From: Halocafeteria seosinensis
Taxonomy: Eukaryota
Direction of reading: 5' to 3'
DNA: 64,000 nucleotides
Assembly: GCA_001687465.1 (NCBI GenBank)
Contig: LVLI01000338.1
Coordinates: 1-64,000, forward strand
The stretch's first letter is position 1. Each line of letters opens with the position of its first letter. Under the pieces are notes generated by a model, which saw only the letters and a program-made list of their open reading frames with translations, was not told the DNA's origin and ran no database searches. A program made the translations under genes and the position numbers. Below are positions 20,265-56,214 of this stretch, piece by piece.

Positions 20265-20645
20265 CACAATTCGGGAAATCTGAGTGATATAAAATGACAT
20301 TTGTATCATCACAATGGCAAACAAATATGGGACGATGAACTATGTGCCGTACAAGACACTGAAAGTTTGCCAATGCTCCGCTTTCAGCTACCAAGTCCAA
20401 CTCCAAGCCCAAGCTCCAGTCCTTCAGTGACTGGAAACGTGACAACCGCCTCTACTTCCACAGTCTCTAGCTCAGTCACGCTATCCTACTCCGGGACTCT
20501 ATCCCTTCGACTTCACCCAGTCTGTCGGGTTCGTCATCGTCACCCCGTCACTCAGTTCAAGCGGTTTCACGAGATACGACGCTCCAGGAGCATCACACGG
20601 GGTCTGACAAACACGCGTCAGCTCGGAGTCTGTCATCAAAGCTAG
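20265..20645 (+). pseudogene. Fragment: ectodomain C-cap plus start of stalk
   Basis: NSGNLSDIK*HLYHHNGKQIWDDELCAVQDTESLPMLRFQLPSPTPSP matches SGNLDDIRGQLYHHGGVQQWDNEAWAVNGRDALPILRFQL of member E. TGA replaces the conserved Gly. Confidence 0.85.
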
Positions 20646-24800: not shown

Positions 24801-27800
24801 GGAGCTAGACTCACTGGGCGACGTAGAAACGAATGCCCTTGATGAGATGGAGCCGCTACTTGTGGGACTTGAGCTACCCTTTGACGATGTTGATCTTGAG
24901 CAGCTTGGTGACGAGAATGGACTTGTGGAAACAGATAAGTTTGACGTAGAAGATTCACTGCTGTTTGCACTGTCCGTTGTGATCTGCGTTTCCGACGGAC
25001 TACTGGACGATGTCGAGGTAACGTGTGGGGTTGACGCGAACGGTCCAGTACATGTAGGGCTGGTGCTCTGCTTTTCCGATGGAATAATTGACGGCGTCGG
25101 AGAGCTTGGCTCGCTTGATGATGATGATGGGCTCTTGGAAACCGATGGGGTCGACGCGAACGACCCACTACTTGTTGGACTAGCCATTGCGCTCTGAGTC
25201 GGTGATGGGTTGATTGACGTAGTCGAAGAGCTTGACCAGTTTGGTGAAGAGGACGATGCCTTGGAAATGGAGGACGTGGGCGTCAATGATCCACTACTTG
25301 TTGCGCTCTGCGACGTGGCTGACGAACTTGACGAGCTTGAAGACGAAAGAGTCGTGGTAGCGGATGAGGTCACAGTGGATGACTCGCTACCTGCAGGACT
25401 CTTGAGAGAGCTCTGCGTGCCCGATTCACTACTCGTAGGACTCTTGGTAGCGCTCCACCTTTCTGATGGAGTAGCTAACGACGTTGAAGGGCTGAACTCC
25501 TTTGGTGTTAACAATGGGCTCTTGGAAACGGAAGAAGTCGCCATGAGGGATCCAGTACTTGTTGAACTAACTGTTCCGCTCTTAGTTGCTGACGGAGTGT
25601 TTGACGTGCTCACGGAACTCGAGGAGCTTGGCGGGGAAGACGGAATCTCTGAAATTGATGAGGTCGGCGTTGTGAATGCACTCTTTGTAGTACTTGTGGT
25701 GGCCGAGAGAGTGTTTGACATGGTCGAGGAGCTTGACCAACTTGGCGAAGAAGATGGATACTCGGAAACCAATGAGGTCGGTATGAATGATCCGCTCCCT
25801 GTAGGAATTGTGGTGACTGAGGGAGTGTTTGACCTGGTCGCGGAGCTTGACCAACTTGGCGAAGAAGATGAATTTTCGGAAACCGATGCGTTCGGTGGGA
25901 ATGATCCGCTCCCTGTCGGGCTTTTGGTGGCCCTTTGTGCGCCGGTTGGAGTGTTTGGCGTCATTGACGAGTTTGACCATCTTGACGAAGAAGATGGAGT
26001 CTCGCAAAGGGATGAGCTCGGCGTCAAAGATCCACTCCTTGTATAACTTGCGGTGGCGCTATGCGTTTCTGTAGGAGTGTTCGGAGCGCTCAAGGAGCTT
26101 GACCCGCTCGGTGAAAACGACGAAGTCTCGGAAGCGGAGGAAGTAGGCGTGAAAGACCCACTCCGTGTTGAACTTGTGCTGACACTGTGTGTTGCTGACG
26201 GAGTATTTGACATGGTCGAGGAGCTTGACCCGCTCGGTGAAAACAACGAAGTCTCGGAAACGGAGGAAGTAGGCGTGAAAGACGAAGTCTCGGAAACGGA
26301 GAAAGTAGGCGTGAAAGACTCACTCCGTGTTGGACTTGTGCTGATACTGTGTGTTGCTGACGGAGTATTTGACATGGTCGAGGAGCTTGACCCGCTCGGT
26401 GAAAACGACGAAGTCTCGGAAACGGAGAAAGTAGGCGTGTAAGACTCACTCCGTGTTGGACTTGTACTGACACTGTGTGTTGCTGACGGAGTATTTGACA
26501 TGGTCGAGGAGCTTGACCCGCTCGGTGAAAACGACGAAGTCTCGGAAACGGAGAACGTAGGAGTGGAAGACTCACTCCGTGTTGGACTTGTGCTGACACG
26601 GTGTGTTGCTGACGGAGTATTTGACATGGTCGAGGAGCCTGAGCCACTCGGTGAAAACGACGAAGTCTCGGAAACGGAGGAAGTAGGCGTGAAAGACTCA
26701 CCCCGTGTTGGACTTGTGCTGACGCTGTGTGTTGCTGACGGAGTATTCGACATGGTCGAGGAGCTTGAGCAGCTTGGGGACGAGGACGGAGTCTTCGAGG
26801 CTGATGACGTCGACGTTGGAGTGTCACTATTTGTTGCGCTCTGTGATGCCAACGCAAGATTTGATACTGTGGAGGAGCTTGACCCGCTTCGTGATAAAGA
26901 TGGCGTTGTCGAAGAGCTGGAGGTTGCGGTCCTCGTTACCGGTGGAGTTTCTGATGCTGCTGTAGCGCTAGACCAGCTGGGTGATGACGATGAAGTAATC
27001 GATCTCGATTTTGTTGCTATGGATGATTCACTACTGCTGGGGCTCCTTGACTCAGTCGTGGTTGGGGTGGTTGAGCTTGAAATTGAAGGGGTAGATGTGA
27101 TCGTCCTCGACGGACACAGAGAGTCTTCATACTTCGGAGGTATATCTAATAAATTTTCCTGCAATTCGGGGAAAGGATAATCACTTGTGTGTTGGCGAAA
27201 AACCCATATAGAAGAGGGCCACTTGTAATCTTCACGGCGATAAAGCTGACCCCTGATACGATTTAAATCACCTGAGTTGCCTTCGTTCGTGAACGTTGCC
27301 TCGTCTTCCATGTCGTTCACGAGCCTCGTTTTGTCTGTACTGCCGTCGCTGGTATCAGCACTGTGAACTGAGTACGTTACACTGACTTCTGCCTCAGAAG
27401 AGACACCCCCTATCAAGAACGACACAGGGCAAGATAACGCATATACATTTCTCACATGCACTATACCACCGCTGGTCCCCGTTGCCGCTCCACATATGGT
27501 ACCTCCATTCGTTCCTCTGTCTCTAATAGCTCCTGTGGTGTAGCAGTTCTGAATTTCAACGCTGCTCTGGTCTCCGTTAGCTGTTTGGACACCGCTAATA
27601 CCACCTGCCCTGTCACCTAAAACATCTCCGGTAGCAAAACATTGGGATACGACAACCGTTCCAAGTGAAGCTGCTGCGCGAGCGCCGCATAGTCCCCCGG
27701 CACCATCGCCTACAATATTTCCAGTTGAATAGCTTTTGGTTATTTCCCCAAAACCTTCCGTTCCAGCACCGGAACCAGCGATACCTCCACTCATTACTCC

Positions 27801-29888
27801 CTTAATCTCGCCATTAGAACTACAATGATCGACTTTGAAGTACTGCTGTCCATGCCGAATAATGAATCCCCCATCTGCAGCCGTGCTGCCCTTCCGCGTG
27901 TGCACATTTTTTATGATAGGAGCCGTTTCGCGGGAATGGACATTGGTATTGACAACAAATATCCCTGGGAACTCCTGAAATCCCTCCAAGTCCGTAACGT
28001 ATCCTTGCCCGTCAAAGGTCTGACTGGAATTCAGGAAGATGGGACTATTATTTGTATCCCTCCATTTGATATCGCATATTTGCACTAACAGCTTTGATTC
28101 GTCACATTTTGTGATACAGTCCACATCATCTCGAATTTTCCCGCAGCGAATGCACTCCGTTTGTTCGGTATCAGGTTCATACCCCCGGGGGCATTCCCGG
28201 CATTCTAGGTCTTGCTCATCGGCAACTGTACCAAACGGACACTGTACACACACTGTTCTGTCTTCATCTGGTTCCTCTCCTTGTTCGCATTCGCGGCATT
28301 CGAAATCTTCCTCACCAGCAACTGTACCGGACGGACATGGTATGCACTCTTTTCTGTCTTTGTCTGGTTGCTCTCCTTGTTCGCATTCGTGGCAATCTGA
28401 ACTGGATTCCTCAGCAACAGTACCTGCGGGACATGATTCGCATGTCGCCTGGTTCTCCTTTGGCTTTTCACCATGCGAACAGGAGTGACACTCAGACTCA
28501 GCCATAGTAGACACCTGATGTACCGGGCAGTCTGTGCATTCATCGTGATCCTCCGTGGGCTGGAAACCTACTCCACAGGCTTTGCACTTCATGTCTTGCT
28601 CTGGTCCACACAACGGTTCCGGATTTCTTCGTAAAAGTGGAAAGTGACGTAATGCACGCTCAGGAGGGATAAACCAAACCGCATCTGACCAGATTTGGTC
28701 GTCGTTAGTTTCGTAGAGTCGGTTCCGAATAACCTCCACAGTATCACAATTTCCCTCCATTTCAAGGATTTCTGCAGGCCAGTCCACATCCGAATCGATT
28801 ATGCGCTCCACCGAACGATGCACAGAGAACTTAACGGTCACTCTTTGTGGTGGGTCTCCACCTGATGTTCCAATGCCTCCAATCATATATGGTCTTTCTT
28901 CTGAGAGCATGTATGTGTTTTCGATCGTCACCATGCCACCATGGATCGCCGTTTTGGCTCCACATATTCCACCAGTGTTGGTATTGCTTTTAAGGATCCC
29001 TGTGGAATATGAGTCACGTATATCGAGATCTCCTTCGCTATGTGCTGCGCCGGCACCTGTCAATCCTCCAGAGTCTTCCCCCGCAATATCTCCCGTGGAG
29101 AAACACTGGGATATGTCTAGATCACCACCATCTCTACCAGCGTTCGCTCCCACGATACCACCCGCACGGTCTCCTTCAATTGTACCAGTGGAATGAGAAC
29201 GCTTTATCGAAGCTTTCCCTTCGTATGCACTATCGGCACCGGCGATTCCGCCACTTCCCTCTCCCGCTATCGTTCCTGTCGAGCTGCAACTATCGACTTT
29301 GAAAAACTGTTGCTCCACTTGAACAACAAAGCCAGCTCTAGCAGCCGTAGAGCCCCCAATAATGCGCACATTTTTTATAGTCGGGGCATCTTCAAAGCTT
29401 TTCACCTCAGAGCTTATTTTGAATAAACCAATGAATGACTCCACCTCTCCCAAATCTATTTTATACCCTTGTCCGTTGAAGCTCTCCCTGGGTTTCAGCA
29501 AGATGTAATCGTCATTTTCGTAGTCTCCCCACTCAATGCTATCCGTTTGAAGTAACTGGCCATGTTCGTCAGATTTAATCCAACCAACCTCATTCCTCAA
29601 ATTCGTCATGCTACATATTAGCGGTGGAGCGAAACACAGCAGTAAGAACACTAGTAAGTGGACGCTACTTGGTGATACTCTCGGGAGTCGGCGTCGCTGG
29701 GACTGTAAAGCAGGACAGTGAGCTAAAGATGACGATTTTCTGTTAGACTGCACATTCCTACGGTAGCATCCCAGCTTTGAGTCTTCCTCTTCTACACGAA
29801 TCCGCAGTGCATGTTGCACGACCACCACCAAAGCATCAAGTGCTAGCAAGAGGCGACTCAAATAAGCACTGGAGCCAACATTCATCAT
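21873..29888 (-). CDS. Family member D: 2671 aa single-pass protein (2 GLUG-like modules separated by Cys-rich repeats, very long mucin stalk, TM, conserved tail)
   Basis: Signal VHLLVFLLLCFAPPLICS. SFNGQGYKIDL and TFDGQGYVTDL module starts, with GGIxG repeats. TM VAMISVFSMLLLVILILIVF-KRRR. Tail LYAAQLGIP, VNPL, LFVDL, VRVVSVTAP, RLKLRQWKAKLLAEPPPLV, RKEFTP. Confidence 0.9.
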   Translation of the reverse strand: MMNVGSSAYLSRLLLALDALVVVVQHALRIRVEEEDSKLGCYRRNVQSNRKSSSLAHCPALQSQRRRLPRVSPSSVHLLVFLLLCFAPPLICSMTNLRNEVGWIKSDEHGQLLQTDSIEWGDYENDDYILLKPRESFNGQGYKIDLGEVESFIGLFKISSEVKSFEDAPTIKNVRIIGGSTAARAGFVVQVEQQFFKVDSCSSTGTIAGEGSGGIAGADSAYEGKASIKRSHSTGTIEGDRAGGIVGANAGRDGGDLDISQCFSTGDIAGEDSGGLTGAGAAHSEGDLDIRDSYSTGILKSNTNTGGICGAKTAIHGGMVTIENTYMLSEERPYMIGGIGTSGGDPPQRVTVKFSVHRSVERIIDSDVDWPAEILEMEGNCDTVEVIRNRLYETNDDQIWSDAVWFIPPERALRHFPLLRRNPEPLCGPEQDMKCKACGVGFQPTEDHDECTDCPVHQVSTMAESECHSCSHGEKPKENQATCESCPAGTVAEESSSDCHECEQGEQPDKDRKECIPCPSGTVAGEEDFECRECEQGEEPDEDRTVCVQCPFGTVADEQDLECRECPRGYEPDTEQTECIRCGKIRDDVDCITKCDESKLLVQICDIKWRDTNNSPIFLNSSQTFDGQGYVTDLEGFQEFPGIFVVNTNVHSRETAPIIKNVHTRKGSTAADGGFIIRHGQQYFKVDHCSSNGEIKGVMSGGIAGSGAGTEGFGEITKSYSTGNIVGDGAGGLCGARAAASLGTVVVSQCFATGDVLGDRAGGISGVQTANGDQSSVEIQNCYTTGAIRDRGTNGGTICGAATGTSGGIVHVRNVYALSCPVSFLIGGVSSEAEVSVTYSVHSADTSDGSTDKTRLVNDMEDEATFTNEGNSGDLNRIRGQLYRREDYKWPSSIWVFRQHTSDYPFPELQENLLDIPPKYEDSLCPSRTITSTPSISSSTTPTTTESRSPSSSESSIATKSRSITSSSSPSWSSATAASETPPVTRTATSSSSTTPSLSRSGSSSSTVSNLALASQSATNSDTPTSTSSASKTPSSSPSCSSSSTMSNTPSATHSVSTSPTRGESFTPTSSVSETSSFSPSGSGSSTMSNTPSATHRVSTSPTRSESSTPTFSVSETSSFSPSGSSSSTMSNTPSATHSVSTSPTRSESYTPTFSVSETSSFSPSGSSSSTMSNTPSATHSISTSPTRSESFTPTFSVSETSSFTPTSSVSETSLFSPSGSSSSTMSNTPSATHSVSTSSTRSGSFTPTSSASETSSFSPSGSSSLSAPNTPTETHSATASYTRSGSLTPSSSLCETPSSSSRWSNSSMTPNTPTGAQRATKSPTGSGSFPPNASVSENSSSSPSWSSSATRSNTPSVTTIPTGSGSFIPTSLVSEYPSSSPSWSSSSTMSNTLSATTSTTKSAFTTPTSSISEIPSSPPSSSSSVSTSNTPSATKSGTVSSTSTGSLMATSSVSKSPLLTPKEFSPSTSLATPSERWSATKSPTSSESGTQSSLKSPAGSESSTVTSSATTTLSSSSSSSSSATSQSATSSGSLTPTSSISKASSSSPNWSSSSTTSINPSPTQSAMASPTSSGSFASTPSVSKSPSSSSSEPSSPTPSIIPSEKQSTSPTCTGPFASTPHVTSTSSSSPSETQITTDSANSSESSTSNLSVSTSPFSSPSCSRSTSSKGSSSPTSSGSISSRAFVSTSPSESSSSTKSDMLWTMSASATSANSIPVSQSTSAATAESSSASFSTTSSRDPSDSPTHSTAKAASPTAEQSETSSPTITPSGSRISTVSSSVIYSPPLVSSMDIPTETRSSTSSGTASTSSPRSISPSISIIPTAFGPTVATFGFSIATSSNFSDIVSTMPGDTAAAATSPASNTSFSSPSSNASISDTVSRSSTLASTPSTSSTPLESVPSSSTSSSSRAGSPTPTHASFTFQSNNSTMHRFVSRSNTPMTAASSSASADSSTVSPTSTRRANATEAITSIASTHSLVQRTAYPESIWTPLSSAATSSRVDLVRPSQSPNDSLSSINESSGSSSSELIMQTPKVSRTGTVATASAFNESSSGLDSNTTGKSADPVETVSLDSPAGASASPSGFSAHVSPAPSGANFNTSAMLVWSINATKSAAVVAGNSSFTAAPVQSDLMGASAFSHPSASKHLGIRVSTTVSPTASSANTSSSLANGSASNLTSSPSPILASGSAPHGNGTVAESSSPTPTASTETEVLSSVSSQQAELVPVPAQVAMISVFSMLLLVILILIVFKRRRNTSMARDTTDPRHLYAAQLGIPVESFKLSSSIQQSTALGGFKEMQADGSQHSSFLATPIGALEAKQSSEVKSKAAIGESGLVNVNPLANPANKATCINPLNDGDQKQTSDAFALSQRRAVQRSVTRTRACSGETRIDKMNANTAVAANSPGSSPLVLFVDLCGYTSGASSAADSVRVVSVTAPKLDSATKHSASHEPVQVALVSQINTADMRSADKTRLKLRQWKAKLLAEPPPLVTVDTGEDNKSSERAAPRGRSSFNRVGSSGTSQASTLAFAAAKGSNLRMLSANQAKHGHQQGGLGVTSPQSRQVRGKIQKGVIHPLSERAKRRRHQGSMRDVLSREAKDHRRVSNPRSHWRKEFTPVLPSDTSTENSKKRGSRPQSLNHIAPTGPSVLQVATKSKTTLSELRRQRFARRHRGNR
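26095..26770 (-). repeat. Coding tandem repeat, 126 bp (42 aa) x~5, one unit with an extra 36 bp
   Basis: gacatggtcgaggagc at 26209, 26371, 26497, 26623 and 26749; unit MSNTPSATHSVSTSPTRSESFTPTFSVSETSSFSPSGSSSST. Confidence 0.95.
28150..28590 (-). repeat. Cys-rich 32-aa (96 bp) repeats, GCC2/GCC3 or ephrin-receptor-like
   Basis: CPAGTVAEESSSDCHECEQGEQPDKDRKECIP / CPSGTVAGEEDFECRECEQGEEPDEDRTVCVQ / CPFGTVADEQDLECREC. Confidence 0.85.
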
Positions 29889-42487: not shown

Positions 42488-45400
42488 TTGAGACTACCCC
42501 GGCGAACAGAAGCATTCCGAGAACGGTTAAAGCGGACGAAATCTAGTAGCCCCACAACGATCTCAGTTTCCATCCTGTTGATACGCACAATACAGCTAAG
42601 CGTTTCTATCATGAAGCTGAGCATTGCTTACTGGGCACCTGCGGAGACTCACAAGGGGAACGAATCCCACCATGTACCACCGACAGGATACAAGAGGAGG
42701 AAACCGGATACAGTTCATTCCGGTATGACGGATTTGGGGCGAGTCGTCATAAGTATTAGTTTGTTTACCGTGCTTGTCAAGGAGGCAGCGGGAGCGAATG
42801 TTGACTTGCGAGCCAATATCCAAGAGGGGAAGGAGCCTTGTTTTCAGTATTTCCCCAATAAGAATCTGTTTCGAATGAACTGTAGCATTCTCAATTGGGA
42901 AGAACAAGGTTACGGTGATGATACTCATATTTCACTTGAAGTGAAAGAGACATTTGATGGTGGTGGTAGCCAAGGAAACATAATTGATTTGAAAGGCATT
43001 GAAGACTTCTACGGGTTGTTTACGGTTGCGAAAGATGGAGAGAACATTGCGTCCTTGAATGAAGCTCCCTTGATCCGCCATGTTCATGTCAAGCACGGGA
43101 CAACTGCGTCCTCTGGAGGATTTGTTATTCGAAAATACCAGAAGTATTTTATCGTCGATTCATGTAGCGCTACAGGCGATATAACGGATAGTGCTGGTGG
43201 TATATGTGGTCATATGGTGGGCCACAATGAGGGGCATATCAAGATATCACATTCCTACTCAACAGGAACGATAAAGGGCAGTTTGGCAGGTGGTATCACC
43301 GGGGACGATACCGGATACGATCATGGAACTGTCAATATCACGCAATGTTACTCCACTGGAACTATTAAAGGGGGCAAATCAGGTGGTACATGTGGACGGG
43401 ATGCCGCTCGTGCTCACGGTCATGTGTATATCACACAGTCATATTCGACGGGAAATATTATTGGGAGCCACAGCGGTGGTATTGTCGGAGATGATGTAGC
43501 ACACGAGTATGGGGACTTACATATTATCGATTGTTATACCCGAGGAAATATTCGTGGTTCCTTGGCCGGAGGAATCACTGGGGAAAGCGCTGGGGGCTAC
43601 AACGATGTTCAGGAAGCTACAGGTGATATATACATTATTAACACGTATGCGTCTGGTGCAGTGAATAGAGACGATGCTGGTGGGCTCATTGGTGATATCG
43701 ACGGATCAACACGTGGTGTTATCAAAGTGCACTATTCGGTATACAATGATAGAGGTGGTGCGGGCCAAATCGTTGGAAGAAACCAGGGGAATGTTCTCGA
43801 AACGGTAGGCATTTCAGGCAATTTAGATGATATAAGAGGTCAACTCTATCATCACGGAGGGGTCCAGCAGTGGGACAATGAGGCATGGGCTGTCAATGGA
43901 CGTGATGCTCTGCCCATTCTTCGTTTCCAGCTAGTGGATCCAACCCCAACCCCAAGTCCATCGACGACTTCCGCGGCAACCCCCACTCCATCTACAACAC
44001 CGTCAAAGACGTCTACTCTCTCAAGTTCTCCCTCTAGATCAGTTACGCCGACACCATCTTTCAGCCCCACCACAAGTGCTTCAAGCTCGAAAACCCCATC
44101 GGCTAGTGTTTCGCCCTCCCAGACTCCTACATCAACAGCAACGCCGAGCCCTACGGCTTCTTTATCGACTACGCCTTCTAGTTCCAGTTCTCGAACGGAA
44201 ACGAGGACGTCTTCTGTCAGTGGAAGTTCTACCGCTTCCACTTCGACGACTGGTACACCTTCTGGGTCAACGTCTATGACGCCGAGTTGGACCCCGACTC
44301 GCAGCCCCCCGAGTTTATGTTCTTGTACAAGCACTCCCTCGTCCTCAAGCTCAGAAACCGTTACCTTGACTTTGACTCCGTGCCCAACAAGATCCACCGC
44401 GCTGACACCAAGCACGCCCACTTCTCCGACAACTAGTGCAAGCCGCAGTTCCATACACCCACTGCCGAAAACCCAGGATGGGAAATCCGCTAATGCAGGC
44501 CCTGTAATGCCAGGAGTGGCCCAATGGGCTGTGATTTCCGCCGTGAGCGTGATTATTTCTATGGCTGTGGCATTCATTCTCTACCGGCGATCAAGAAATC
44601 GCAATATGTCCAAGTTTACCGACGATCCGAAAAAAGTGTATGCTGCCCAGTTAGGTATACCCTCGAAAAATGTCAAAGTGATGTTTCCTGACAGAGATGG
44701 AAACGCTGCATTCCATATTCACTCTCTGAGTGTTGATGATGAAAATATGGAACTCGCTCATGTCAACCCCCTGAACTTACCGACAAATCGTGGGGAGTCT
44801 TCTTCAGGCCAATCCAATCCGTCATCCGTAAATACTCGACCGTCTCAAACCCAGTTCTCCTATCAGTCCCACACCGTGGCTCCAACGGTAAATAGTGGTG
44901 AAGCACCTGTGACGGTGGCCAATGGAGCAAAAACATTGGGGAGGGCTTCAGTGGAGCCTCCCCAAATAGTCTTTGTGGAACCTCGCGGTCAATCACTGAG
45001 CTCACACAGAGTTCGCATCGTTTCTTCCGCTGCGCCGAGTATTCAGCGTGTCCATAGAACAAGATCTCGAGGCGAATCGTGTCAAGTAAAGGTTGCTTCC
45101 ATAGTTGACCTTGACACCACGTCCATGAAGCGAATAGAACGTCTTAGACTGCGGTTGAGGCAATGGAAGTCAAAGGTGCTTGCTGAGCCTCCGCCTCTTG
45201 TCGAACTGGAAGTAGACAGTGTATCCTCTGAAACGAACAGCGGGGAGCTGTCCAGTAACGCTGCTGCCAGTTCTGACTCCGGTAGTGGTATCGCTCAATT
45301 GAAGTTTGCAAAACCTGATGTCCATGCCGCACGAAACACCCTTTCCGAAGAGACAAAGAACGACCGTTGCCGGCAACCTAGGATTGGTTCGATTGGTAAG

Positions 45401-45505
45401 AAAGAATTTACTCCAGTGCCTTCTCAAACCTCGCGTTCCTCGGCGAGGAGTGGTTTTACATCTGTCAAGCAGAAGGCTGCTGGCTCGCGCCGAGGAAAGA
45501 CGTGA
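42488..45505 (+). CDS. Family member E: one GLUG-like module, stalk, TM, conserved tail (start uncertain: ATG 42611 or 42725)
   Basis: VVISISLFTVLVKEAAGA|NVDLRANIQEGKEPCF, ETFDGGGSQGNIIDL and GGIxG repeats. TM WAVISAVSVIISMAVAFILY-RR. Tail VYAAQLGIP, HVNPL, RLRLRQWKSKVLAEPPPLVELEV, KKEFTP. Confidence 0.9.
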   Translation: MRLPRRTEAFRERLKRTKSSSPTTISVSILLIRTIQLSVSIMKLSIAYWAPAETHKGNESHHVPPTGYKRRKPDTVHSGMTDLGRVVISISLFTVLVKEAAGANVDLRANIQEGKEPCFQYFPNKNLFRMNCSILNWEEQGYGDDTHISLEVKETFDGGGSQGNIIDLKGIEDFYGLFTVAKDGENIASLNEAPLIRHVHVKHGTTASSGGFVIRKYQKYFIVDSCSATGDITDSAGGICGHMVGHNEGHIKISHSYSTGTIKGSLAGGITGDDTGYDHGTVNITQCYSTGTIKGGKSGGTCGRDAARAHGHVYITQSYSTGNIIGSHSGGIVGDDVAHEYGDLHIIDCYTRGNIRGSLAGGITGESAGGYNDVQEATGDIYIINTYASGAVNRDDAGGLIGDIDGSTRGVIKVHYSVYNDRGGAGQIVGRNQGNVLETVGISGNLDDIRGQLYHHGGVQQWDNEAWAVNGRDALPILRFQLVDPTPTPSPSTTSAATPTPSTTPSKTSTLSSSPSRSVTPTPSFSPTTSASSSKTPSASVSPSQTPTSTATPSPTASLSTTPSSSSSRTETRTSSVSGSSTASTSTTGTPSGSTSMTPSWTPTRSPPSLCSCTSTPSSSSSETVTLTLTPCPTRSTALTPSTPTSPTTSASRSSIHPLPKTQDGKSANAGPVMPGVAQWAVISAVSVIISMAVAFILYRRSRNRNMSKFTDDPKKVYAAQLGIPSKNVKVMFPDRDGNAAFHIHSLSVDDENMELAHVNPLNLPTNRGESSSGQSNPSSVNTRPSQTQFSYQSHTVAPTVNSGEAPVTVANGAKTLGRASVEPPQIVFVEPRGQSLSSHRVRIVSSAAPSIQRVHRTRSRGESCQVKVASIVDLDTTSMKRIERLRLRLRQWKSKVLAEPPPLVELEVDSVSSETNSGELSSNAAASSDSGSGIAQLKFAKPDVHAARNTLSEETKNDRCRQPRIGSIGKKEFTPVPSQTSRSSARSGFTSVKQKAAGSRRGKT

Positions 45506-45960
45506 AAAGGTGAGTCCCGTGGTCATGCAGGGTCTACTAGACAAGCGGATATGCTCTTACCCATTGCAGGTAGTTTTTAACACTGTTACTATTTGCTCTT
45601 CAACACACAACTCTATTTGATTACGGAGCAGCAACATCATGTTTAGTCGTTGCAACTTGCACGACGATGGTTAAGCATGTCAGCCTCGTACGTTCACGTG
45701 TACGTTGACATGCGCGTATACATATTCCTGGTTGCTAAAGGAATTGTTTGGTTCGATGCTGCTTCCTACGGACTACATGCAATACAGTAGAGATGCCTTT
45801 GGTTTCCCCCCATGATCACTGTTGCATACCTACCTTTGAGCAGCTACATGTATTTTGCTGATGAGCGTTGTACTTTGCTAAGCATGGTCGAAGTGAACAT
45901 CCAAGACTCAAGAACCGTGAGTATCCTGTAAGATCTGAAAATTGCCGAACGACGCAATGA

Positions 45961-47067
45961 CAGTCGTCCGACCCAACGGCAGCCAGCTCAACTCCAAGTG
46001 CCACCTCGACATCGACACCGAGTTCCACCTCGACGTCGACACCGACGTCTACATGGACGCCATCGCAGACACCTCCAAAGACATCTACCTCCTCGAGCTC
46101 TCCGTCTACAACGGTCACTCGAACAGCATCTTGGAGTGCAACACTGAGCTCCTCCGAGACACCATCTGGAACTGTTTTAGTTCCCAAAACTCCAAGATCT
46201 ACGATAACTACGAGTCCCTCAACAAGTTTCTCCAGTTCGATGACCATTTCACCGTCACGCTCAACATCGGGAACTACGGACAACACTGCTTCTACCAGTG
46301 TAAGCCTTACTTTGGCCACCGTTACGCTGTCGGGGTCAACGTCTGGGACAACTACATCCGCTGCGAGTTGCTCTGGTTCGGTGACGCCTTCCCTATCTTC
46401 GAGAACAAACTATATTGCGATGCATGCATCCCGCACTGGCGCGTCAAACAATTCAGACCCTATGGTGTCAGGAGTTGCTGAAGTGACTTTAACTTCCATA
46501 GTGAGCTGTATGGCCCTCCTGGCCTTAGCATTTATTCTCTCCCGGCGATCAAAGAATCGCAATATGTCCAAGCATGTCGACGATCCGAAAGTACTGTACG
46601 CAGCCCAGTTAGGTATATCCTTGAGCACAGTAAAAGTGATGTTCCCCGACACAGATGGAAACGCTGCATTCCAGATTCATCCTGTGAATGCTGATGACAA
46701 ACCTACGGAAGTAGCTCATGTGAACCTTCTACACCTTTGGGAAAAATCGTGCAAATCCTTCTCCAGACCGGTCGATTCCGTCGAACATTATACTAGAACA
46801 ACTGAAAACCAGTCCTTAGATCAAGCCCAGATTGTAGCTCCAACTTTAGATAGCGGTGGAAGAGAAACGGCAATCTCGGCGAAAGGAGCAGAGAGATCGA
46901 GGTCGGCTTCACTGGAAACTCCCACAGTCATCTTCGTGGAACGCAACGCTGAACCATTGAGCTTAGACGAAGTCCGAATTGTATCTACGGCTGCGCCAAA
47001 TTTGCAGCGAATTGATAAAACAGAATCTTCCGGCAAAACGGCATCACACTGTTGTCTCACCGGTTAG
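45961..47067 (+). pseudogene. Ectodomain-less stalk-TM-partial tail fragment (mosaic of E-like and F-like sequence)
   Basis: Open from a TGA at 45958 (QSSDPTAASSTPSA..TWTPSQTP) to a stop at 47067. It has a TM, LYAAQLGIS and VRIVSTAAPNLQR but lacks the LRQWK..EPPP block. Confidence 0.8.
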
Positions 47068-47122
47068 TCAGGCTTCTATTGGTGCTACTATCCACATTAT
47101 TCGGCACACCGCAGTTAGCCCT

Positions 47123-50100
47123 ATGATTCACTGCCGTTCGGGACGAGTTTTCGTAGTCAACAGAGAGATGAGCCGTTTGGTGTTAACCACTGAACCGCTC
47201 CCAGCAAATTGCGCTTTCCGAAACAGTACCCCGTCTGGAATGAAACCTTGTTTTCCGTATTTTCCTAATGGCAAGTTATTCCAAACGACGCGTACTGTTC
47301 TCCGGCTGGAGGCACATAATTACGAAGCTGATATTTCCTTTGACGCAAAGAAGGCTTTTGATGATGGCAAGGGCATAGAAAATATCATTGACTTGAAGGA
47401 CTTGCCGAGAGGGTCTAGTGAATGGTTATCCGCAGAAGCAGATAAAGCGTTGAGCGCAGGTCCGCAGGGTAGCTCTGCCGCAGGAAGAAATGTATTGAGT
47501 ACAGCGTCCATAGGTAAAGTGATGGCATTTCCTTCTATGTCTGTTGCATATACGTCTGGCGATTGGTCCTTTATTTCTTCGGAGGGTGAATCGCACTACG
47601 CGGCTCACTCATTCCCGGTGGTATATCCTCTGTTGATACTGTTATCAACATTATTCTGCGCCGCACAGTTGGCTAATATTTTGATCATGAGCTGTGTCGA
47701 CTACAACTACCACCATCAATACCGGTCATCGTCAGCGTCAGCGAATGAACTCGGAATTGAATCCCGCTGGAAGGGGATGGTCGGTCGAGGCATTGATAGG
47801 ATTTCTTCGAGCAGCAAGAAGTTGAAACGACGAAAAATCCGGTCATACATGTATTCCACAAAAAGTATCATACAGACGCTCTTGTGCCTTAGCACTCTGT
47901 CGATCTGGGTATGGAACCCTGTGGATGCAAATGATTTGTACAAGGATATTGTTGATGGGGAAGGAGCTTGTCTCCAGCAGGTACTCATTGACCATCTGTT
48001 CACCCACCTCAAGTGGGAGGACCAAAAGTACGATGCTGACACTCAGGTGTCCGTGAAGATAGGCGAGACATCTGATGGGGATGGTCGCGTAGGAAATCTT
48101 ATTGGCTTAGGCGAGAATTTGCTGCACTATTTCAAGGCCACATTGTTGCTTCCTGAGGCACGTCTTGCCGTTGAAAACGATGTGCGTACCAGAGAGTCTC
48201 TTTCGGCAGGTACAGGTATTCATTATGGTACATGCTCTTCACGAGGAGGCAGGGCCATCCCTGTGCCTCAAATTGGAATGGGAGTCATTCTTAGTGCAGC
48301 ATACCTATTCATTTCCGCTACTATTCTACTGGATGGCTACCCGAAAGAGTCAGGCCCTCGCTGTGTGGGTGACTACCATCGAACGTCACCCAGTATCTGC
48401 TTGTATGGTAAAGAAGAGGAGATTAGTGGTTTGAACTTAGTTTGCAGCGGGAAACGGAGACGAAGTAAACTCCAAGCTCGCCAAATGGCTGTTGAATCAA
48501 TCGTTATATATTTCACCACGTTGGCAGCTATGTTGATACTCCCCGGGAAATCGCTCGCTCAAGACTCCGATGATTTGCGAGACAGTATCGTAGACGGCAA
48601 TGAAACTTGTTTCCAGTATTTCCCCGCTGACAATCTCTTTCGGATGACCTGCACTGTGCTCAACTGGAACACCAGCTACAGCAATGACGATGACCACACC
48701 CACATTACGCTTAAGGCGAAAGAGACATTTGATGGTGGTGGTCGTGAAGGAAATATCATTGAGTTGGGGGACACTCAAAGCTTCCCTGGATTATTCCGGG
48801 GTGATAATGACATCGGATCTTTGGATGAGGCTCCGTTGATTCGAAATGTCCATGTCAAGAATGGGAAAACTGCATTTGCAGGTGGATTTATTGTTCAACA
48901 AGATCAAAAGTATTTTGTCGTGGATTCATGTAGCTCAACAGGAGAGATCACGGCTGAGCATGCTGGTGGTATATGTGGTAAGGCGGGTGGCGACGGAGGC
49001 CACATTACAATATCGAATTCCTATTCGACAGGGACAATACAGGGTGGATTTGCAGGTGGTATCGCAGGAGGAGGTGTAGGATCCTATAGTGGGACTGTGA
49101 ATATCACCCAATGTTATTCCACTGGGACAATCCGGGGATACTCAGCAGGTGGTATCTGTGGGGACAATGCTGGTCATGAGAAAGGTCTCGTGTATATCAC
49201 GCAATCGTATTCCACAGGAACTATTCCGGGGGACCATAGTGGTGGAATTACTGGATATGCTCCAGCGCTTAATGATGGTGAAGTACATATACAAGATTGC
49301 TATACGCGAGGACATATTGCGGGTGATACAGCAGGAGGGATTGCTGGGGCATACAGAGAAACAGGCAAAGTATACATAACAAATACGTATGCTTCCGGTA
49401 TCGTCCACCATCAAAATAGTGGTGGAATCATTGGAGAGATAAATGATATTGCAAATGGTGTCCTCAACGTAAAATATTCGGTGTATAATGGCTCGAATGG
49501 GGCCCCTTTGGTCAGAGACGACAACTCCCACGAGGGTGTCTTGAACACGACAGGCATTTCAAACACTTTGGATGATATACAGGGTCAACTGTATCATTTT
49601 AAGGGCGTCCAGAAATGGGATAATGAAATCTGGGCTCTCAATGGCGCGGATACTCTGCCCATTTTGCGCTTTCAATTGATGCAACCACTCGAGCCTGTTG
49701 CAACTGTGGAGCCAAGTCCTTGTGTTGAAGCCCAACCGACATCCCAACGGACACAATTATCGCCCGCAACTCCGGCAGGTACTCCCTCTTCGCCTTCCGC
49801 TCCTGCTGACTTGCGAAGTAGGATCCAAAATGGGAACGAGCGTTGTTTTCAGTATTTGCCCGACGAAAGTCTTTTTCGAATGACGTGTACTGTTCTCAAG
49901 TGGGAAACCAGTAGGTACGATAGGAACACGCACATTAAGCTCAAGGTAAATGAGACATTTGATGGTGGTGGTCGCAACGGAAATATCATTGAGTTGGGGC
50001 ACACTCACGACTTACTTGGATTATTCCGGGTTGAAAATGATGGTGATGACATTGAGTCATTGGATGAAGCTCCGTTGATTCAGAATGTCAATGTCAAGAA

Positions 50101-52963
50101 TGGGCGCATTGCAGAAGGTGGTGGGTTTATTGTTCGAGAAGACCAAAAATATTTTATCGTGGACTCGTGTAGCTCTACAGGGTTGGTCACTAAGCATTAT
50201 GCTGGTGGTATATGTGGTCGTCATGCGGGTCGCAACGGAGGCCACATTAAGATATCGAATTCCCACTCTACAGGGGCAATACAGGGTAAACATGCAGCTG
50301 GTATCGCAGGAGGAGGTGTAGGATCCCACAGTGGGACTGTGAATATCACCCAATGTTATTCCACTGGGACAATTGGAGGAACTCATTCAGGTGGTATCTG
50401 TGGGGATAATGCTGGTCATACGAATGGTCTCGTGTATATCACGCAATCATATTCCACAGGAACTATCGACGGGAAACAGAGTGGTGGAATTACTGGATAT
50501 GCTCCAGCGCTTAATGATGGTGAAGTACATATACGAGATTGCTATACGCGAGGAAATATTGCGGGCGATACAGCAGGAGGGATTACTGGGGCATACACAG
50601 GAACAGGCAAAGTATACATAACAAATACGTATGCTTCCGGTATTGTCCACCATCAAAATAGTGGTGGAATCATTGGAGAGATAAATGATATTGCAAATGG
50701 TGTCATCAACGTAAAATATTCGGTGTATAATGGCTCGAATGGGGCCCCTATGGTCAGAGACGACAACTCCCACGAGGGTGGCTTGAACACGACAGGCATT
50801 TCAAACACTTTGAATGATATACAGGGTCAACTGTATCAGTATAATGGCGTCCAAAAATGGGATAATGAAATCTGGGCTCTCAGTGGCACTGATACTCTGC
50901 CCATTTTGCGCTTTCAGTTGTCCCAATCGTCAAGGGAGCCGAGCTCAACTCCAAGCGCCATGCCGACACCGACGCCGACATGGACGCCGTCTGAGACACC
51001 TCGAAGAACTCCTACTTCATCGAGCTCATCGTCCACCACAGTCACTCCTACATCGTCTTGGAGTGCAACACCGAGCTCCTCCACATCTATAACGCCGTCT
51101 GAGACACCTCCAAGAACCCCGACTTCGTCGAGCTCATCGTCCACCACAGTCACTCCTACACGATCTTGGAGTGCAACACCGAGTTCCTCCACATCTATTA
51201 CACCTTCCGGAACCGCTTCGCTTTCGAAAACTCCAACATCAGCGAGAACTCAGAGTCCCACAACGAGTGTTTCGAGCTCCATGACTGTTTCTATGACTAT
51301 TTCGCCGTCCAGCTCGACGTCGCGAAGTCGGTCGGCGAAAACTCATTCTGCCACTAAAAGTCCTACTGAATCCAGCTCAACCACGTCCACACCATCGAGC
51401 TCAGGTTCTGGAACGGTTACCTTTACAACGAGTTTCTCTAGTTCGATAGCGCCCTCCGTAGCTACGAATGCAAGCTTTACTCCGAACATTCCACCTCAAG
51501 ACTCTCCTGCTGACGTGTCAAAGAATTCAGACCCAATAATGTCCGGAGTGGCCCAAGTCGGTTTGTCGTCCGCGGTGTGTTGCATGGCACTCATTGCTCT
51601 GATTTTCATTGTATACCGGCGCCGAAGGAACAGCTATATGACCAAGCGGGCTGATGACCCGAAGGAAGTGTATGCAGCTCAGTTAGGAATACCCTTGGAT
51701 AATGTCAAAGTTATGTCACAGGGAAAACATGGCGGTGGCAATTTTCAGATCCACACCCTTGGTGCTAGCTTCAGCCGTGCGGATGCATCCGTCTCAGAGC
51801 ATGGGGAAAACAAGGAAGCACATATACTCTCCAAAAATCCAGATGGTGAAATGATGGAGGTAGCTCATGTAAATCCTTTGGATTCCTCGCAAAAGCAGGC
51901 AGAATATCACGATTCACCTTCCTGGGATCAGCACAATATATCTGAGAAATTCTCCCTCAATAAGGGAACTGTTCACCGAAGAGACCTACGCAGAATCGAT
52001 GAGTGCAATGCTAGAGTGGCCAAAGATGACGCGAGCACGGCCTATGCGACCGTTGCTGAGGGTGCAAGTAATGGGATCGAAAAGCTAGGAGCTAGCAACT
52101 TTGCTGCTGAGGAACAAGCAACAAGTTCCATCGTCACTCAGAATGAGAATTTATCCGAATTCGAGCTGGCCAATATCAACCCACTGGCTTCCACTGCACA
52201 GCGGCAACAACCTCAACACGAAAGGGGATTCTCCGATCCAGCCCAGTATACATCTCAAATGTTCTCGCTGGCGCAGAAGCAAGCTCATCGCAGAGCCGTT
52301 GGACAAGATGCGACGCCACATGTAGATGCTGGTGTTGTCCAACCTGGTGCACTGATAGCTGGCGAAGTGTCATCTCCGTCGACTTCAGTGGGCAAACCCC
52401 AAGTGATGTTCGTGGAACCAGGCGCACAGAAAGCGTCGACGGATAAAGTTCGAATCGTTTCCGCTGCTCCGCCAAACCTGCAACGTGCTGATAAAACGAA
52501 GTCCCACGATGGGACATCCGTGGTTAAGGTTGCTTCAGTAGTGGATCTTGATACCTCGGAGATGAAACGCATCGACCGTATGCGGCTTCAGCTGAGGCAA
52601 TGGAAGGCTAGGCTGCTGGCGGAACCCCCACCTCTTGTCGAAGTGGAAGTGAACGATTCATCGTCTGCACAAAGTAGCGCAGGGCTCTGGAAAACGACCG
52701 CTGCTAATCGGGACTGTGGTTCCAGTACAGCTGTTGCTCAACTGGATTTTGCGAAGAGGGATATTCATAACACACGAAGCATGCTCTCTCAAGAGGCGAA
52801 GCAACACCGCCGCCGTAAATTTGAGATTGGGTATGTGTCGAAAAAGGAATTTGCCCCTTCATTGCCTTCGCAAAATTCTAGTGCTTTGGGACGAAGCGTC
52901 TCTTCGTTTTCCGGGAAGAAAACTGTCGCCGTTGGCTCACGTCGAGCTCGTAGTAGGCGTTAG
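47123..52963 (+). CDS. Family member F: long multi-hydrophobic leader, 2 recently duplicated GLUG-like modules, stalk, TM, conserved tail (alternative start ATG 48485)
   Basis: First in-frame ATG is 47123 (frame open from 46979). SIVIYFTTLAAMLILPGKSLA|QDSDDLRDSI precedes two modules. TM VGLSSAVCCMALIALIFIVY-RRRR. Tail MKRIDRMRLQLRQWKARLLAEPPPLVEVEV, KKEFAP. Confidence 0.9.
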   Translation: MIHCRSGRVFVVNREMSRLVLTTEPLPANCAFRNSTPSGMKPCFPYFPNGKLFQTTRTVLRLEAHNYEADISFDAKKAFDDGKGIENIIDLKDLPRGSSEWLSAEADKALSAGPQGSSAAGRNVLSTASIGKVMAFPSMSVAYTSGDWSFISSEGESHYAAHSFPVVYPLLILLSTLFCAAQLANILIMSCVDYNYHHQYRSSSASANELGIESRWKGMVGRGIDRISSSSKKLKRRKIRSYMYSTKSIIQTLLCLSTLSIWVWNPVDANDLYKDIVDGEGACLQQVLIDHLFTHLKWEDQKYDADTQVSVKIGETSDGDGRVGNLIGLGENLLHYFKATLLLPEARLAVENDVRTRESLSAGTGIHYGTCSSRGGRAIPVPQIGMGVILSAAYLFISATILLDGYPKESGPRCVGDYHRTSPSICLYGKEEEISGLNLVCSGKRRRSKLQARQMAVESIVIYFTTLAAMLILPGKSLAQDSDDLRDSIVDGNETCFQYFPADNLFRMTCTVLNWNTSYSNDDDHTHITLKAKETFDGGGREGNIIELGDTQSFPGLFRGDNDIGSLDEAPLIRNVHVKNGKTAFAGGFIVQQDQKYFVVDSCSSTGEITAEHAGGICGKAGGDGGHITISNSYSTGTIQGGFAGGIAGGGVGSYSGTVNITQCYSTGTIRGYSAGGICGDNAGHEKGLVYITQSYSTGTIPGDHSGGITGYAPALNDGEVHIQDCYTRGHIAGDTAGGIAGAYRETGKVYITNTYASGIVHHQNSGGIIGEINDIANGVLNVKYSVYNGSNGAPLVRDDNSHEGVLNTTGISNTLDDIQGQLYHFKGVQKWDNEIWALNGADTLPILRFQLMQPLEPVATVEPSPCVEAQPTSQRTQLSPATPAGTPSSPSAPADLRSRIQNGNERCFQYLPDESLFRMTCTVLKWETSRYDRNTHIKLKVNETFDGGGRNGNIIELGHTHDLLGLFRVENDGDDIESLDEAPLIQNVNVKNGRIAEGGGFIVREDQKYFIVDSCSSTGLVTKHYAGGICGRHAGRNGGHIKISNSHSTGAIQGKHAAGIAGGGVGSHSGTVNITQCYSTGTIGGTHSGGICGDNAGHTNGLVYITQSYSTGTIDGKQSGGITGYAPALNDGEVHIRDCYTRGNIAGDTAGGITGAYTGTGKVYITNTYASGIVHHQNSGGIIGEINDIANGVINVKYSVYNGSNGAPMVRDDNSHEGGLNTTGISNTLNDIQGQLYQYNGVQKWDNEIWALSGTDTLPILRFQLSQSSREPSSTPSAMPTPTPTWTPSETPRRTPTSSSSSSTTVTPTSSWSATPSSSTSITPSETPPRTPTSSSSSSTTVTPTRSWSATPSSSTSITPSGTASLSKTPTSARTQSPTTSVSSSMTVSMTISPSSSTSRSRSAKTHSATKSPTESSSTTSTPSSSGSGTVTFTTSFSSSIAPSVATNASFTPNIPPQDSPADVSKNSDPIMSGVAQVGLSSAVCCMALIALIFIVYRRRRNSYMTKRADDPKEVYAAQLGIPLDNVKVMSQGKHGGGNFQIHTLGASFSRADASVSEHGENKEAHILSKNPDGEMMEVAHVNPLDSSQKQAEYHDSPSWDQHNISEKFSLNKGTVHRRDLRRIDECNARVAKDDASTAYATVAEGASNGIEKLGASNFAAEEQATSSIVTQNENLSEFELANINPLASTAQRQQPQHERGFSDPAQYTSQMFSLAQKQAHRRAVGQDATPHVDAGVVQPGALIAGEVSSPSTSVGKPQVMFVEPGAQKASTDKVRIVSAAPPNLQRADKTKSHDGTSVVKVASVVDLDTSEMKRIDRMRLQLRQWKARLLAEPPPLVEVEVNDSSSAQSSAGLWKTTAANRDCGSSTAVAQLDFAKRDIHNTRSMLSQEAKQHRRRKFEIGYVSKKEFAPSLPSQNSSALGRSVSSFSGKKTVAVGSRRARSRR
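48570..50920 (+). repeat. Tandem duplication of the ectodomain module (period ~1240 bp)
   Basis: 49060-49680 is nearly identical to 50300-50920, including long identical runs such as acaggcaaagtatacataacaaatacgtatgcttccggtat. Confidence 0.95.
50984..51205 (+). repeat. 108-bp (36 aa) x2 stalk repeat
   Basis: acgccgtctgagacacctc at 50984 and 51092. Confidence 0.85.
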
Positions 52964-54429: not shown

Positions 54430-56214
54430 CTACGGGTATATTTTGCACGACGTCATTGGCAGCCTCCTTGTTAGTCTGTTTCCTTGTGATGTAGCGGTAG
54501 TATGGCCGGAAGAATTAGCACGCGTCTCATTGCGAGTCGGAGTAGGAAGCATAGTGGGTAACTGTCGCATCTGGAAGCGAAGAATTGGTAGGGAGTCACT
54601 TCCATTCGGAGTCCAAACACTCTCGTTCCACCGTCGGGTACCACTAAAACTGTACAGTGTGCCACGAATTCCCGCTAGATTGTCAGAATTTCCTATAGGC
54701 ACCAGATTCTGTCCAGCGTCTTTCCCTACTATTGGTGCCCCCTCATTGCCTCGGTACACGGAGTACTTCACGAGAATATCACCTGAGGCTGTCTCAGGGA
54801 TTTGGCCAATAAGACATCCACCATTGTGCGACGCAACAAAGCCTGAAGCGTAGCACTTTGTTAAACGCACATCTCCGGAGGCGGACAAGTCGCCGCCGCC
54901 AGTGTGGCTTCCTGTAATTCCTCCGGCTTCTTCGCCCGTAATATTCCCCACCGTGTAACAGTCTGTGACGTGGACATCTCCATTGTTCATTGCTATAGTA
55001 GCCCCAACAATACCACCACTGTGCTCTCCTGGGATCTCCCCAGTACTGAAACACTCTTTGATGCGTACAGTTCCTTGGGACTTTCCCGCTCCTGCACCCA
55101 CTATTCCTCCAGTTCCACATCCTGAGGACACCGCTCCAATTCTTCCAGTTGAAAATGATTCATAAATGTCAATGTGACCGTATCGTTCACCGGCCGAAAA
55201 TCCACAAATTCCACCAGCGTCCTGCCCTTGGATGTCTCCTGTAGAAAAACAGCGCTCTATGGTGGCCATGCCCCGGAAACGTCCTGTATGACTACCGATT
55301 ATTCCACCTGCATTAATACCCACTATATGTCCCGTGGAGTGCGAGTTCACCACCTTGATCCGGCCCCCATCGGAGCCACATTCCCTTCCGCAGATGCCTC
55401 CTGCTCCATCATTTGTTATTGCTCCGGAGGAGCTGCAGGATTCCACAACGAAAAATCTCTGATGTCTTTGGAATATAAAGCCACCGTGCGATGCAGTTGT
55501 ACCATTCTTTATATGGACGTTTCGAACAACGGGTGCCTCTGCGAAGGAAGCTACGCTTTTAATTCTGAACAATCCTTCAAACTCTGTAACAGTGTGTAGA
55601 TCGATAGTGTGTCCCGCTCCTTCAAAAGTCTCATTGGAACTAAGGGAAATATAATCATCGGCTTTGTACCGTCTACTCCATAATAGCATGGTGCAGTTCA
55701 ATTTGAACTCCTTACGGCCGGGGAAAAACTCAAAGCATCGCTCAAACCCATGTATAATGTTGCTTCTCAAGTCCGTTGGAGCCGCCGATGCCGTGAGTAG
55801 ATCAGACGCGGATACAACCAATGTTACAAGAGGCAAGATTATTGACCTTCTGGGTTGCACTAACGTAGGGGTGCATCGCCTCTGAAAATGCTTGACGCAA
55901 TCGTTCTTTCTCCCCTTCTTCTGCCAAAGTTCTGACACCAGTTTCCGAAGTTGAAAAATTCGTGAAACGAGCCCTTCCGCGCCACCACAGCCAGTGCAGC
56001 CATGATACATGCCAATCAATCCCAGCAACAGTAGTACCAGTGTCGTTGTCTTTCTGGGAGATGGATCGTCTTTGCCTTGTTTTGAGAGAATGACACAGTC
56101 TCCGATGCTCCGGAGCGGAGCAGTTCGTAATTTACCACTGCTTCCCCAGCGCATGCTGGTGGTATTGCTCATTGCGATGGTGCGGTTTCTAATTTTCGTC
56201 TGGGAGGTTATCAT
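54430..56214 (-). CDS. Family member G: one GLUG-like module, minimal stalk, no C-terminal TM (probably secreted)
   Basis: First ATG 56214. Two hydrophobic leader segments precede APTDLRSNIIHGFERCFEF, ETFEGAGHTIDL, GGIxG repeats and WTPNGSDSLPILRFQM. The ORF ends LTRRLPMTSCKIYP. Confidence 0.85.
   Translation of the reverse strand: MITSQTKIRNRTIAMSNTTSMRWGSSGKLRTAPLRSIGDCVILSKQGKDDPSPRKTTTLVLLLLGLIGMYHGCTGCGGAEGLVSRIFQLRKLVSELWQKKGRKNDCVKHFQRRCTPTLVQPRRSIILPLVTLVVSASDLLTASAAPTDLRSNIIHGFERCFEFFPGRKEFKLNCTMLLWSRRYKADDYISLSSNETFEGAGHTIDLHTVTEFEGLFRIKSVASFAEAPVVRNVHIKNGTTASHGGFIFQRHQRFFVVESCSSSGAITNDGAGGICGRECGSDGGRIKVVNSHSTGHIVGINAGGIIGSHTGRFRGMATIERCFSTGDIQGQDAGGICGFSAGERYGHIDIYESFSTGRIGAVSSGCGTGGIVGAGAGKSQGTVRIKECFSTGEIPGEHSGGIVGATIAMNNGDVHVTDCYTVGNITGEEAGGITGSHTGGGDLSASGDVRLTKCYASGFVASHNGGCLIGQIPETASGDILVKYSVYRGNEGAPIVGKDAGQNLVPIGNSDNLAGIRGTLYSFSGTRRWNESVWTPNGSDSLPILRFQMRQLPTMLPTPTRNETRANSSGHTTATSQGNRLTRRLPMTSCKIYP

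Follow-up and report, generated by a model that had tools for sequence, protein, structure and literature searches.

Gene F of the halophilic, bacterivorous bicosoecid Halocafeteria seosinensis encodes two tandem copies of a predicted beta-helix module, F1 and F2, whose parts appear to have diverged on two different clocks. The gene lies in the first 64,000 nucleotides of contig LVLI01000338.1 (assembly GCA_001687465.1), the stretch analyzed here and referred to below as the window. Comparison of the two modules indicates that they are likely the product of an old duplication, and that gene conversion or unequal exchange likely rewrote their last two-thirds at a later time. Four divergent islands, 91-93 bp apart, lie within the homogenised tract, in one loop of successive predicted coils. 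The explanation we prefer, to which we give about an even chance, is that conversion likely homogenised the scaffold of these old tandem copies and that selection likely preserved the differences in one loop of four coils, which would leave the protein with two binding ladders.

The modules F1 (48569-49678, 370 residues) and F2 (49805-50920, 372 residues), like all features of gene F given here on the forward strand, are 79% identical, and F1 is predicted to be a right-handed parallel beta-helix of the GLUG type. The initial annotation took them to be recently duplicated, a view that the first third of the module contradicts. There (48569-48961, partner 49805-50200) the synonymous divergence (dS) is 0.54 and 14 of 38 fourfold-degenerate sites differ, an old divergence, whereas in the last two-thirds (48962-49678, partner 50201-50920) 3 of 110 such sites differ and dS outside the islands is 0.067 (residues 1-131 versus 132-370, Fisher p=2.6e-7). 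Between F1 and the paralogous module E (42803-43933, forward strand, 58% identical to F1) the corresponding counts are 13/30 in the same first third and 27/54 and 15/28 in the two segments that follow. Over the first third, F1 shares 70% identity with the paralog P0001 and 67% with F2, and a tree of module segments with 13 rows (2 partial rows of 15 were left out) gives a three-way split without resolution; in the last two-thirds, where F1 and F2 are 83-91% identical, the same tree joins them as sisters with support of 100/99. Because the fourfold contrast is combined with a first third in which F1 is closer to a paralog than to its tandem partner, the last two-thirds has likely been gene-converted. 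An old duplication with homogenised flanks, one part of the pattern expected of a peak of divergence, is therefore what was found.

Within the tract the remaining differences are not scattered. Over residues 125-271 of F1 there are 57 nucleotide differences, and 34 of the gaps between them are 3 nt or shorter versus 19.1 expected, a degree of clustering reached in none of 20000 permutations. The 28 amino-acid differences of this interval peak at offsets -2 and -1 before the motif AGGI, which hold eight of them. By slot A we mean the four residues that precede AGGI, and by slot B the loop that follows GGIxG. In coils 1 to 4 slot A reads ITAEH in F1 (48947-48961, at the edge of the homogenised tract) and VTKHY in F2 (50186-50200), IQGGF (49037-49051) and IQGKH (50279-50293), IRGYS (49130-49144) and IGGTH (50372-50386), and IPGDH (49223-49237) and IDGKQ (50465-50479); the amino acid is altered in 11 of 16 slot-A codons of these coils. 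Slot B differs as KAGGD (48980-48994) against RHAGRN (50219-50236, one codon more) in coil 1, Tyr (49085-49087) against His (50327-50329) in coil 2, EK (49178-49183) against TN (50420-50425) in coil 3 and RE (49355-49360) against TG (50597-50602) in coil 5. All six slot pairs quoted in the initial annotation are present with the quoted codons, and the 44-nt identical stretch it cited as common to both modules is found at 49088 and 50330. Slot A stands out both from the other family-variable sites of the tract (10/15 versus 11/57 differ, p=0.0008) and from slot B, which is equally variable in the family (11/16 versus 6/21, p=0.02).

The islands also carry more silent change than their surroundings. 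The slots hold a disproportionate share of the silent changes (4/18 versus 6/187, p=0.006), and when only unavoidable silent changes are counted, there are 6 in 30 island codons versus 6 in 187 elsewhere (p=0.002), or 6 where 0.96 would be expected (p=0.0003). All three bases are changed in 4 of the 12 altered island codons. The silent divergence of slot A, 0.56-0.69 by a pathway counting that is unreliable in codons hit several times, resembles that of the first third and is unlike the local value of 0.07. Silent divergence linked to the peaks is thus at the old level, on small counts and with classes set post hoc. Point mutations arising in a young copy would be expected to leave no such surplus of silent changes. 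Block inheritance of the islands is therefore likely, whether the blocks were kept from the old divergence or brought in, and the match of their silent divergence with that of the first third favours retention. As the origin of the coil-3 island, a compensated one-base frameshift failed to reach significance (p=0.10). For the coil-1 island a codon shift gave p=0.007, but that island is one of four tested.

The position of the slots on the predicted fold suggests what the islands have in common. A model of F1 built on a 63-row alignment reached a predicted local distance difference test score (pLDDT) of 96.4, with 31-residue coils of three strand segments each; prediction from the single sequence gave 41. 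The model superposes on the beta-helix of IgA1 protease (Z 22.5, root-mean-square deviation 3.7, 271 residues aligned) and on PDB 3n6z (Z 21.9, root-mean-square deviation 4.0, 287 aligned), with polysaccharide lyases and tailspikes near behind (Z 19-22), and a fold in common with such proteins shows no function. A profile match to 3n6z (E 4e-7) and assignment to the GLUG and M26-N clusters of the atlas (score 0.95) agree with the prediction of a right-handed parallel beta-helix matching 3n6z and the M26 N-terminal domain. The Pfam gathering score for PF07581 is not reached by F1 (15.4 bits versus a cut-off of 20.5), and with E up to 0.1 the Pfam GLUG model picks out 7 of the 63 members of the family. 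In the model, slots A and B likely flank the glycine-rich AGGI strand as two rims of one face, and since equal offsets stack in a parallel beta-helix, the slots of successive coils likely line that face. The stacked ladder of the initial annotation is borne out to this extent: judged by offset and secondary structure, the slots of successive predicted coils share one register and likely stack.

In the mechanism that we favour, each module would be a predicted parallel beta-helix of 31-residue coils, with slots A and B bordering the glycine-rich strand and stacked along the coils, and conversion tracts or unequal exchanges would carry scaffold DNA between the modules. Products that overwrote slot A would lose one specificity and be removed, and old slot-A blocks would in this way persist together with their silent changes. 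The putative ladder would bind a variable ligand outside the cell. Our own division of the possibilities gives about half to a surface glycan or glycoprotein of prey or substrate, somewhat under a third to a virus and about a fifth to some other ligand.

A number of results weigh against this reading. The slot classes were set after the differences had been seen, two sequences were compared and several tests were run. In coils 5 and 6 slot A is homogenised, with the same amino acids in F1 and F2. It shows no excess over the highly variable sites of the unconverted third (10/15 versus 19/29), and slots A and B pooled do not differ significantly from other variable sites (p=0.16). Silent changes adjacent to any replacement, 5 of 11 (p=0.095), are not significant at 1, 2 or 3 codons, and aromatic residues are weakly enriched at the slots (p=0.04 for FWY, p=0.58 for FWYH). 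In nine other close pairs of family members the two slots are equally variable: slot A differs at 36/141 positions, slot B at 48/188 and outward strand positions at 28/235. The two halves of the homogenised tract have similar background dS (0.09 and 0.06), which would also fit one long conversion. Finally, the ratio of replacement to silent divergence (dN/dS, omega) over 48940-49381 of F1 is 1.02, on a count of about 15 silent differences over 120 silent sites. When slot A is set against the old clock (dS 0.54) omega is 1.6 (0.64-4.3), and 15% of bootstrap replicates do not exceed 1. The earlier statement that silent differences are few holds in part, as those present are concentrated within the slots; the ratio is not above 1 over the interval, and for the slots it depends on the clock, being 12.9 on the local one.

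The mosaic could instead have been assembled by import. One long conversion would have been followed by the transfer of 10-30 nt tracts to the slots from paralogs at other loci, and selection would keep those imports that change the ladder. Short-tract import from donors has analogues in the microconversion of the major histocompatibility complex and in conversion of the VSG type. We consider this origin unlikely, though a serious contender. It would account for block-like changes with an excess of silent differences and for the evenly low background of the tract, and contigs from the sequencing runs also speak for it. The region is present in four runs of one study, which may include the window's own source, and contigs with loose ends at 48951 and 50380 indicate further close paralogs whose sequence keeps to the F scaffold as far as a slot and departs from it there. 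Run X2 holds a third copy (50091-50340) that is of F2 type but mixes in F1-type letters within 247 nt, at 6 of 7 substitutions, together with a 3-nt deletion and an F1-type codon at slot B of coil 2 on the F2-type background; these letters reflect either an exchange or an older state, common to the copies, that was retained. Among transcripts of the same species, the near-identical pair P0068/P0183 (GECG01006582.1/GECG01006581.1) differs at 12 positions, all of them confined to 362-458 of its 1175 residues, as one conversion tract would leave them. P0124/P0184 differ at two adjacent slot-B residues and one further site within the module and P0003/P0182 show no difference within the module. On the other side, no donor was found in the 64-kb window, where the best other match of each of the eight variable slot-A 21-mers has 4-7 mismatches, and none of the eight variant slot-A tetrapeptides recurs among 35 same-species sequences, in which 114 of the tetrapeptides in 116 coils are distinct. 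The longest exact tract shared by F with another module of the window is 25 nt, with E, in the conserved glycine motif, and no long one was found. In addition, the equality of island and old F1/F2 silent divergence is predicted by retention without further assumptions. A frameshifted module (3094-3929, reverse strand) and a short module fragment (20271-20390, forward strand) elsewhere in the window could serve as a sequence reservoir.

It is also conceivable, though decidedly less probable, that the slots are unconstrained surface loops in which old mismatches stop conversion tracts and persist without selection. The variability of both slots throughout the family would be expected on this account. 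Besides the nine close pairs, 7 of 128 proteins contain an internal coil pair of at least 75% identity, and in these 20 of 48 slot-A and 28 of 59 slot-B positions differ, versus 18 of 80 outward strand positions; on these comparisons, variable slots are a trait of the whole family, other organisms included. The old-clock omega, not significantly above 1, and the equality of slot A with the variable sites of the unconverted third also fit it. Against it, slot B matches slot A in family-wide variability and in block length, yet it has mostly been homogenised in F, and four islands recur at one register. Since slots A and B vary family-wide, what is peculiar to F is that differences survive inside the homogenised tract and that slot A exceeds slot B.

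A recent homogenisation followed by very strong positive selection on point mutations in the slots, with omega near 13, appears very improbable. A slot dN of 0.84 over the local dS of 0.067 does give an omega of 12.9 (5-42), and the third copy in X2 carries fresh single-base replacements, one of them new in slot B (50224). This account is opposed by the excess of unavoidable silent changes and by the four codons altered at all three bases, and the first third shows the modules to be old. The related scheme of the initial annotation, in which a recent duplication was diversified by point mutation, is not supported for the same reasons: the modules are old, the scaffold was likely converted and the islands have excess silent changes.

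We hold it scarcely probable that the mosaic was made in assembly, with part of F1 being an F2 allele from the other homologue (so that the slot differences would be allelic) or with a wrong phase between slots; the low depth in X1 of the contig across the junction (49657-50120), 55.8 versus about 104 in its flanks, although depth is no copy number, contig pieces of at most 464 nt, none of which spans a whole module, and a divergent version of 47114-48829 in X3, upstream of and inside F1 (33 other letters, 9 gap positions), speak for it, whereas in 3 of 4 runs the unique linker joins the module end to the F2 start without a difference (over 464 nt in both X1 and X2 and over 372 nt in X3) and contigs give exact matches to slots of the F1 type and of the F2 type, among them 48930-49098, 49135-49276, 50091-50225 and 50348-50461. 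The junction depth hints weakly that only one homologue carries the two-module form, and together with the divergent version in X3 it suggests that module number may differ between homologues. The genome is described as diploid, with 46.8% guanine plus cytosine (GC), in the accessible part of a preprint (10.64898/2026.06.25.734631).

Old duplicates kept alike by conversion and bearing local peaks of divergence at likely selected sites are known from the human red and green opsins and are described by the model of Teshima and Innan (PMC3924837, available portion). As far as that portion goes, gene F resembles the opsins in these respects and differs in that its duplicates are domains in one gene and its peaks number four, of about 15 nt each, with the 93-bp period of the coil. 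Plant leucine-rich-repeat (LRR) receptors of the nucleotide-binding type, for example the RPP8 family, have a hypervariable register under intergenic exchange, according to the part of the source available (PMC6771003). They share with F the solenoid, the hypervariable positions at one repeat register and paralogs that exchange sequence; F differs as a predicted GLUG beta-helix in an extracellular type-I membrane layout, with variable loops flanking a glycine-rich strand. With the GLUG and Peptidase_M26_N beta-helices (PF07581, PF05342; 3n6z; the N-terminal domain of streptococcal IgA1 protease) F has the fold and repeat in common. It differs from them in having no HExxH motif in its 1492 residues and no protease domain, and the eukaryote-type modules form a clade of their own. 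F was therefore rejected as an M26 IgA1 metalloprotease, for which neither the motif nor a catalytic domain was found. In IgA1 protease itself the catalytic residues lie outside the beta-helix, according to the accessible text of PMC7695701, and the GLUG motif is described as "of unknown function", with adhesion suggested, in that of PMC9723798.

Two systems of programmed diversity were also compared, following the initial annotation, which had drawn an analogy with the first and set aside the second. The idea of a variable face survives, but variable lymphocyte receptors (VLRs) have an LRR fold and the confident model of F is a beta-helix with GLUG-like coils; F was rejected as a VLR, and no VLR-type cassette array or cassette donors were found in the window. 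Both VLRs and the targets of diversity-generating retroelements (DGRs) carry a variable face on a constant scaffold. F was likewise rejected as a DGR target, in agreement with the earlier judgment that the changes are not adenine-specific. At the 57 differing sites F1 has A 13, C 12, G 20 and T 12 and F2 has A 17, C 16, G 11 and T 13, and adenine thus makes up 13/57 and 17/57 without bias. No template-like match for a DGR template repeat was found in the window, and no reverse transcriptase among 10 sequences scanned.

The modules belong to a large family. Six genes of the window carry nine intact copies of the 370-residue module, besides broken copies: in addition to F1, F2 and E these are G (54568-55773, reverse strand), B (6936-8006, forward), the tandem pair C1 and C2 (10881-13409, forward) and the tandem pair D1 and D2 (27159-29522, reverse). 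Gene E is 99.8% identical to the EukProt record GECG01004441.1, so the window and the GECG transcriptome come from the same species, and that transcriptome adds 30 representatives of the family to the nine window modules. A profile search returned 569 clusters at E up to 1e-30. In a quick tree of 48 rows, with group labels assigned by the analyst, the 13 same-species modules and 11 ENA or Logan modules tested form one clade with a value of 100 in the Shimodaira-Hasegawa-like approximate likelihood ratio test. Seven of 55 candidate rows were omitted from this tree for short matches, among them P0238, P0090, L002v, L004v and P0048, and rows of the length of P0059 were kept. No orthologue of F from another strain or species was found among EukProt records and metagenome contigs, and a scan of metagenome contigs with F1 gave no match. 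A description of this family was not found in the literature searched, which mostly did not extend to subscription papers, and the accessible parts of PMC5447177, PMC4987115, PMC4330952 and PMC9723798 do not describe it; the scaffold is apparently that of an undescribed protist surface family.

Relatives also occur in giant viruses. The best viral fold matches in BFVD are two Hint-domain proteins of Cafeteria roenbergensis virus, E3T4G7 and E3T4R2 (E 1e-10 and 5e-9, 24-26% identity), and relatives of P0126 are found on the giant-virus contigs L001-L005 (IMG/VR; three are named GVMAG) together with DUF4347 and Hint domains. These viral beta-helix proteins share the coil motif with F, and their near-identical coils differ at slots A and B; they differ from F in their flanking domains, which in the GVMAG proteins give the order DUF4347, beta-helix, Hint. 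The two proteins from giant-virus contigs are therefore absent from the 48-row tree, having been among the rows omitted for short matches, in which P0126 is a stand-in, and the tree gives no donor between viral and eukaryotic modules. Viral contigs scanned with the close alignment and with P0076 gave no match. Many endogenous virophages and polinton-like viruses have been reported from H. seosinensis, according to the available part of a preprint (10.64898/2026.07.28.741278).

The DNA of the window is eukaryotic and intron-poor, with a GC content near 48%. Gene F (48485-52963) encodes 1492 residues, comprising a predicted signal segment at a hydrophobic N-terminus, the two beta-helix modules, a stalk rich in Ser, Thr and Pro, one transmembrane helix and a cytoplasmic tail. 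The modules are joined by a linker of 42 residues (49679-49804) that is rich in Pro, Thr and Ser and unique in the window. In the stalk (50921-51544) there is a 108-bp tandem duplication at 50984-51207 with copies 90.5% identical, and the predicted transmembrane helix (51545-51613) is followed by RRRR. Upstream of the F start the frame is open for about 500 codons (46979-48484, forward strand) and holds two decayed module N-termini at 47216-47401 and 47930-48202; long N-terminal extensions are present in many GECG paralogs too. Between genes E and F (45930-47067, forward) lies a remnant of stalk, transmembrane segment and tail without an ectodomain, behind an in-frame stop. By eye, the cytoplasmic tails of the genes at 1-2247, 21873-29888, 42488-45505, 46240-47067 and 48485-52963 have motifs in common, YAAQLGIP-like after the membrane helix and WKAKLLxEPPPL close to the end, and this suggests a joint role in signalling or trafficking. 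Gene C (10707-19706, forward) combines its two modules with a long stalk, a Cys-rich part and multi-pass membrane segments and by eye resembles an adhesion receptor; a Pfam scan of it gave no match. Gene D (21873-29888, reverse) has Cys-rich repeats between its two modules, with a weak match to Ephrin_rec_like.

Conversion and selection that together leave peaks of divergence are a known process; the scaffold and the organism are new. If the preferred reading of retained slot-A blocks is right, the periodic comb in F marks, codon by codon, the loop of an uncharacterised solenoid that likely does the binding, and F1 and F2 are a natural matched pair that makes this putative binding face directly testable. 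A bolder proposal, which we regard as quite improbable, is that diversification is ongoing and combinatorial: at least 30 surface beta-helix receptors, with a scaffold in common with giant viruses, of a free-living protist would swap loop-sized tracts coil by coil, making new ladders against viruses or prey, as a VLR-like repertoire made by conversion on a fold other than the LRR. Its size in this organism and its relatives on giant-virus contigs make the family a candidate for a part in prey recognition or in virus-host conflict in heterotrophic flagellates.

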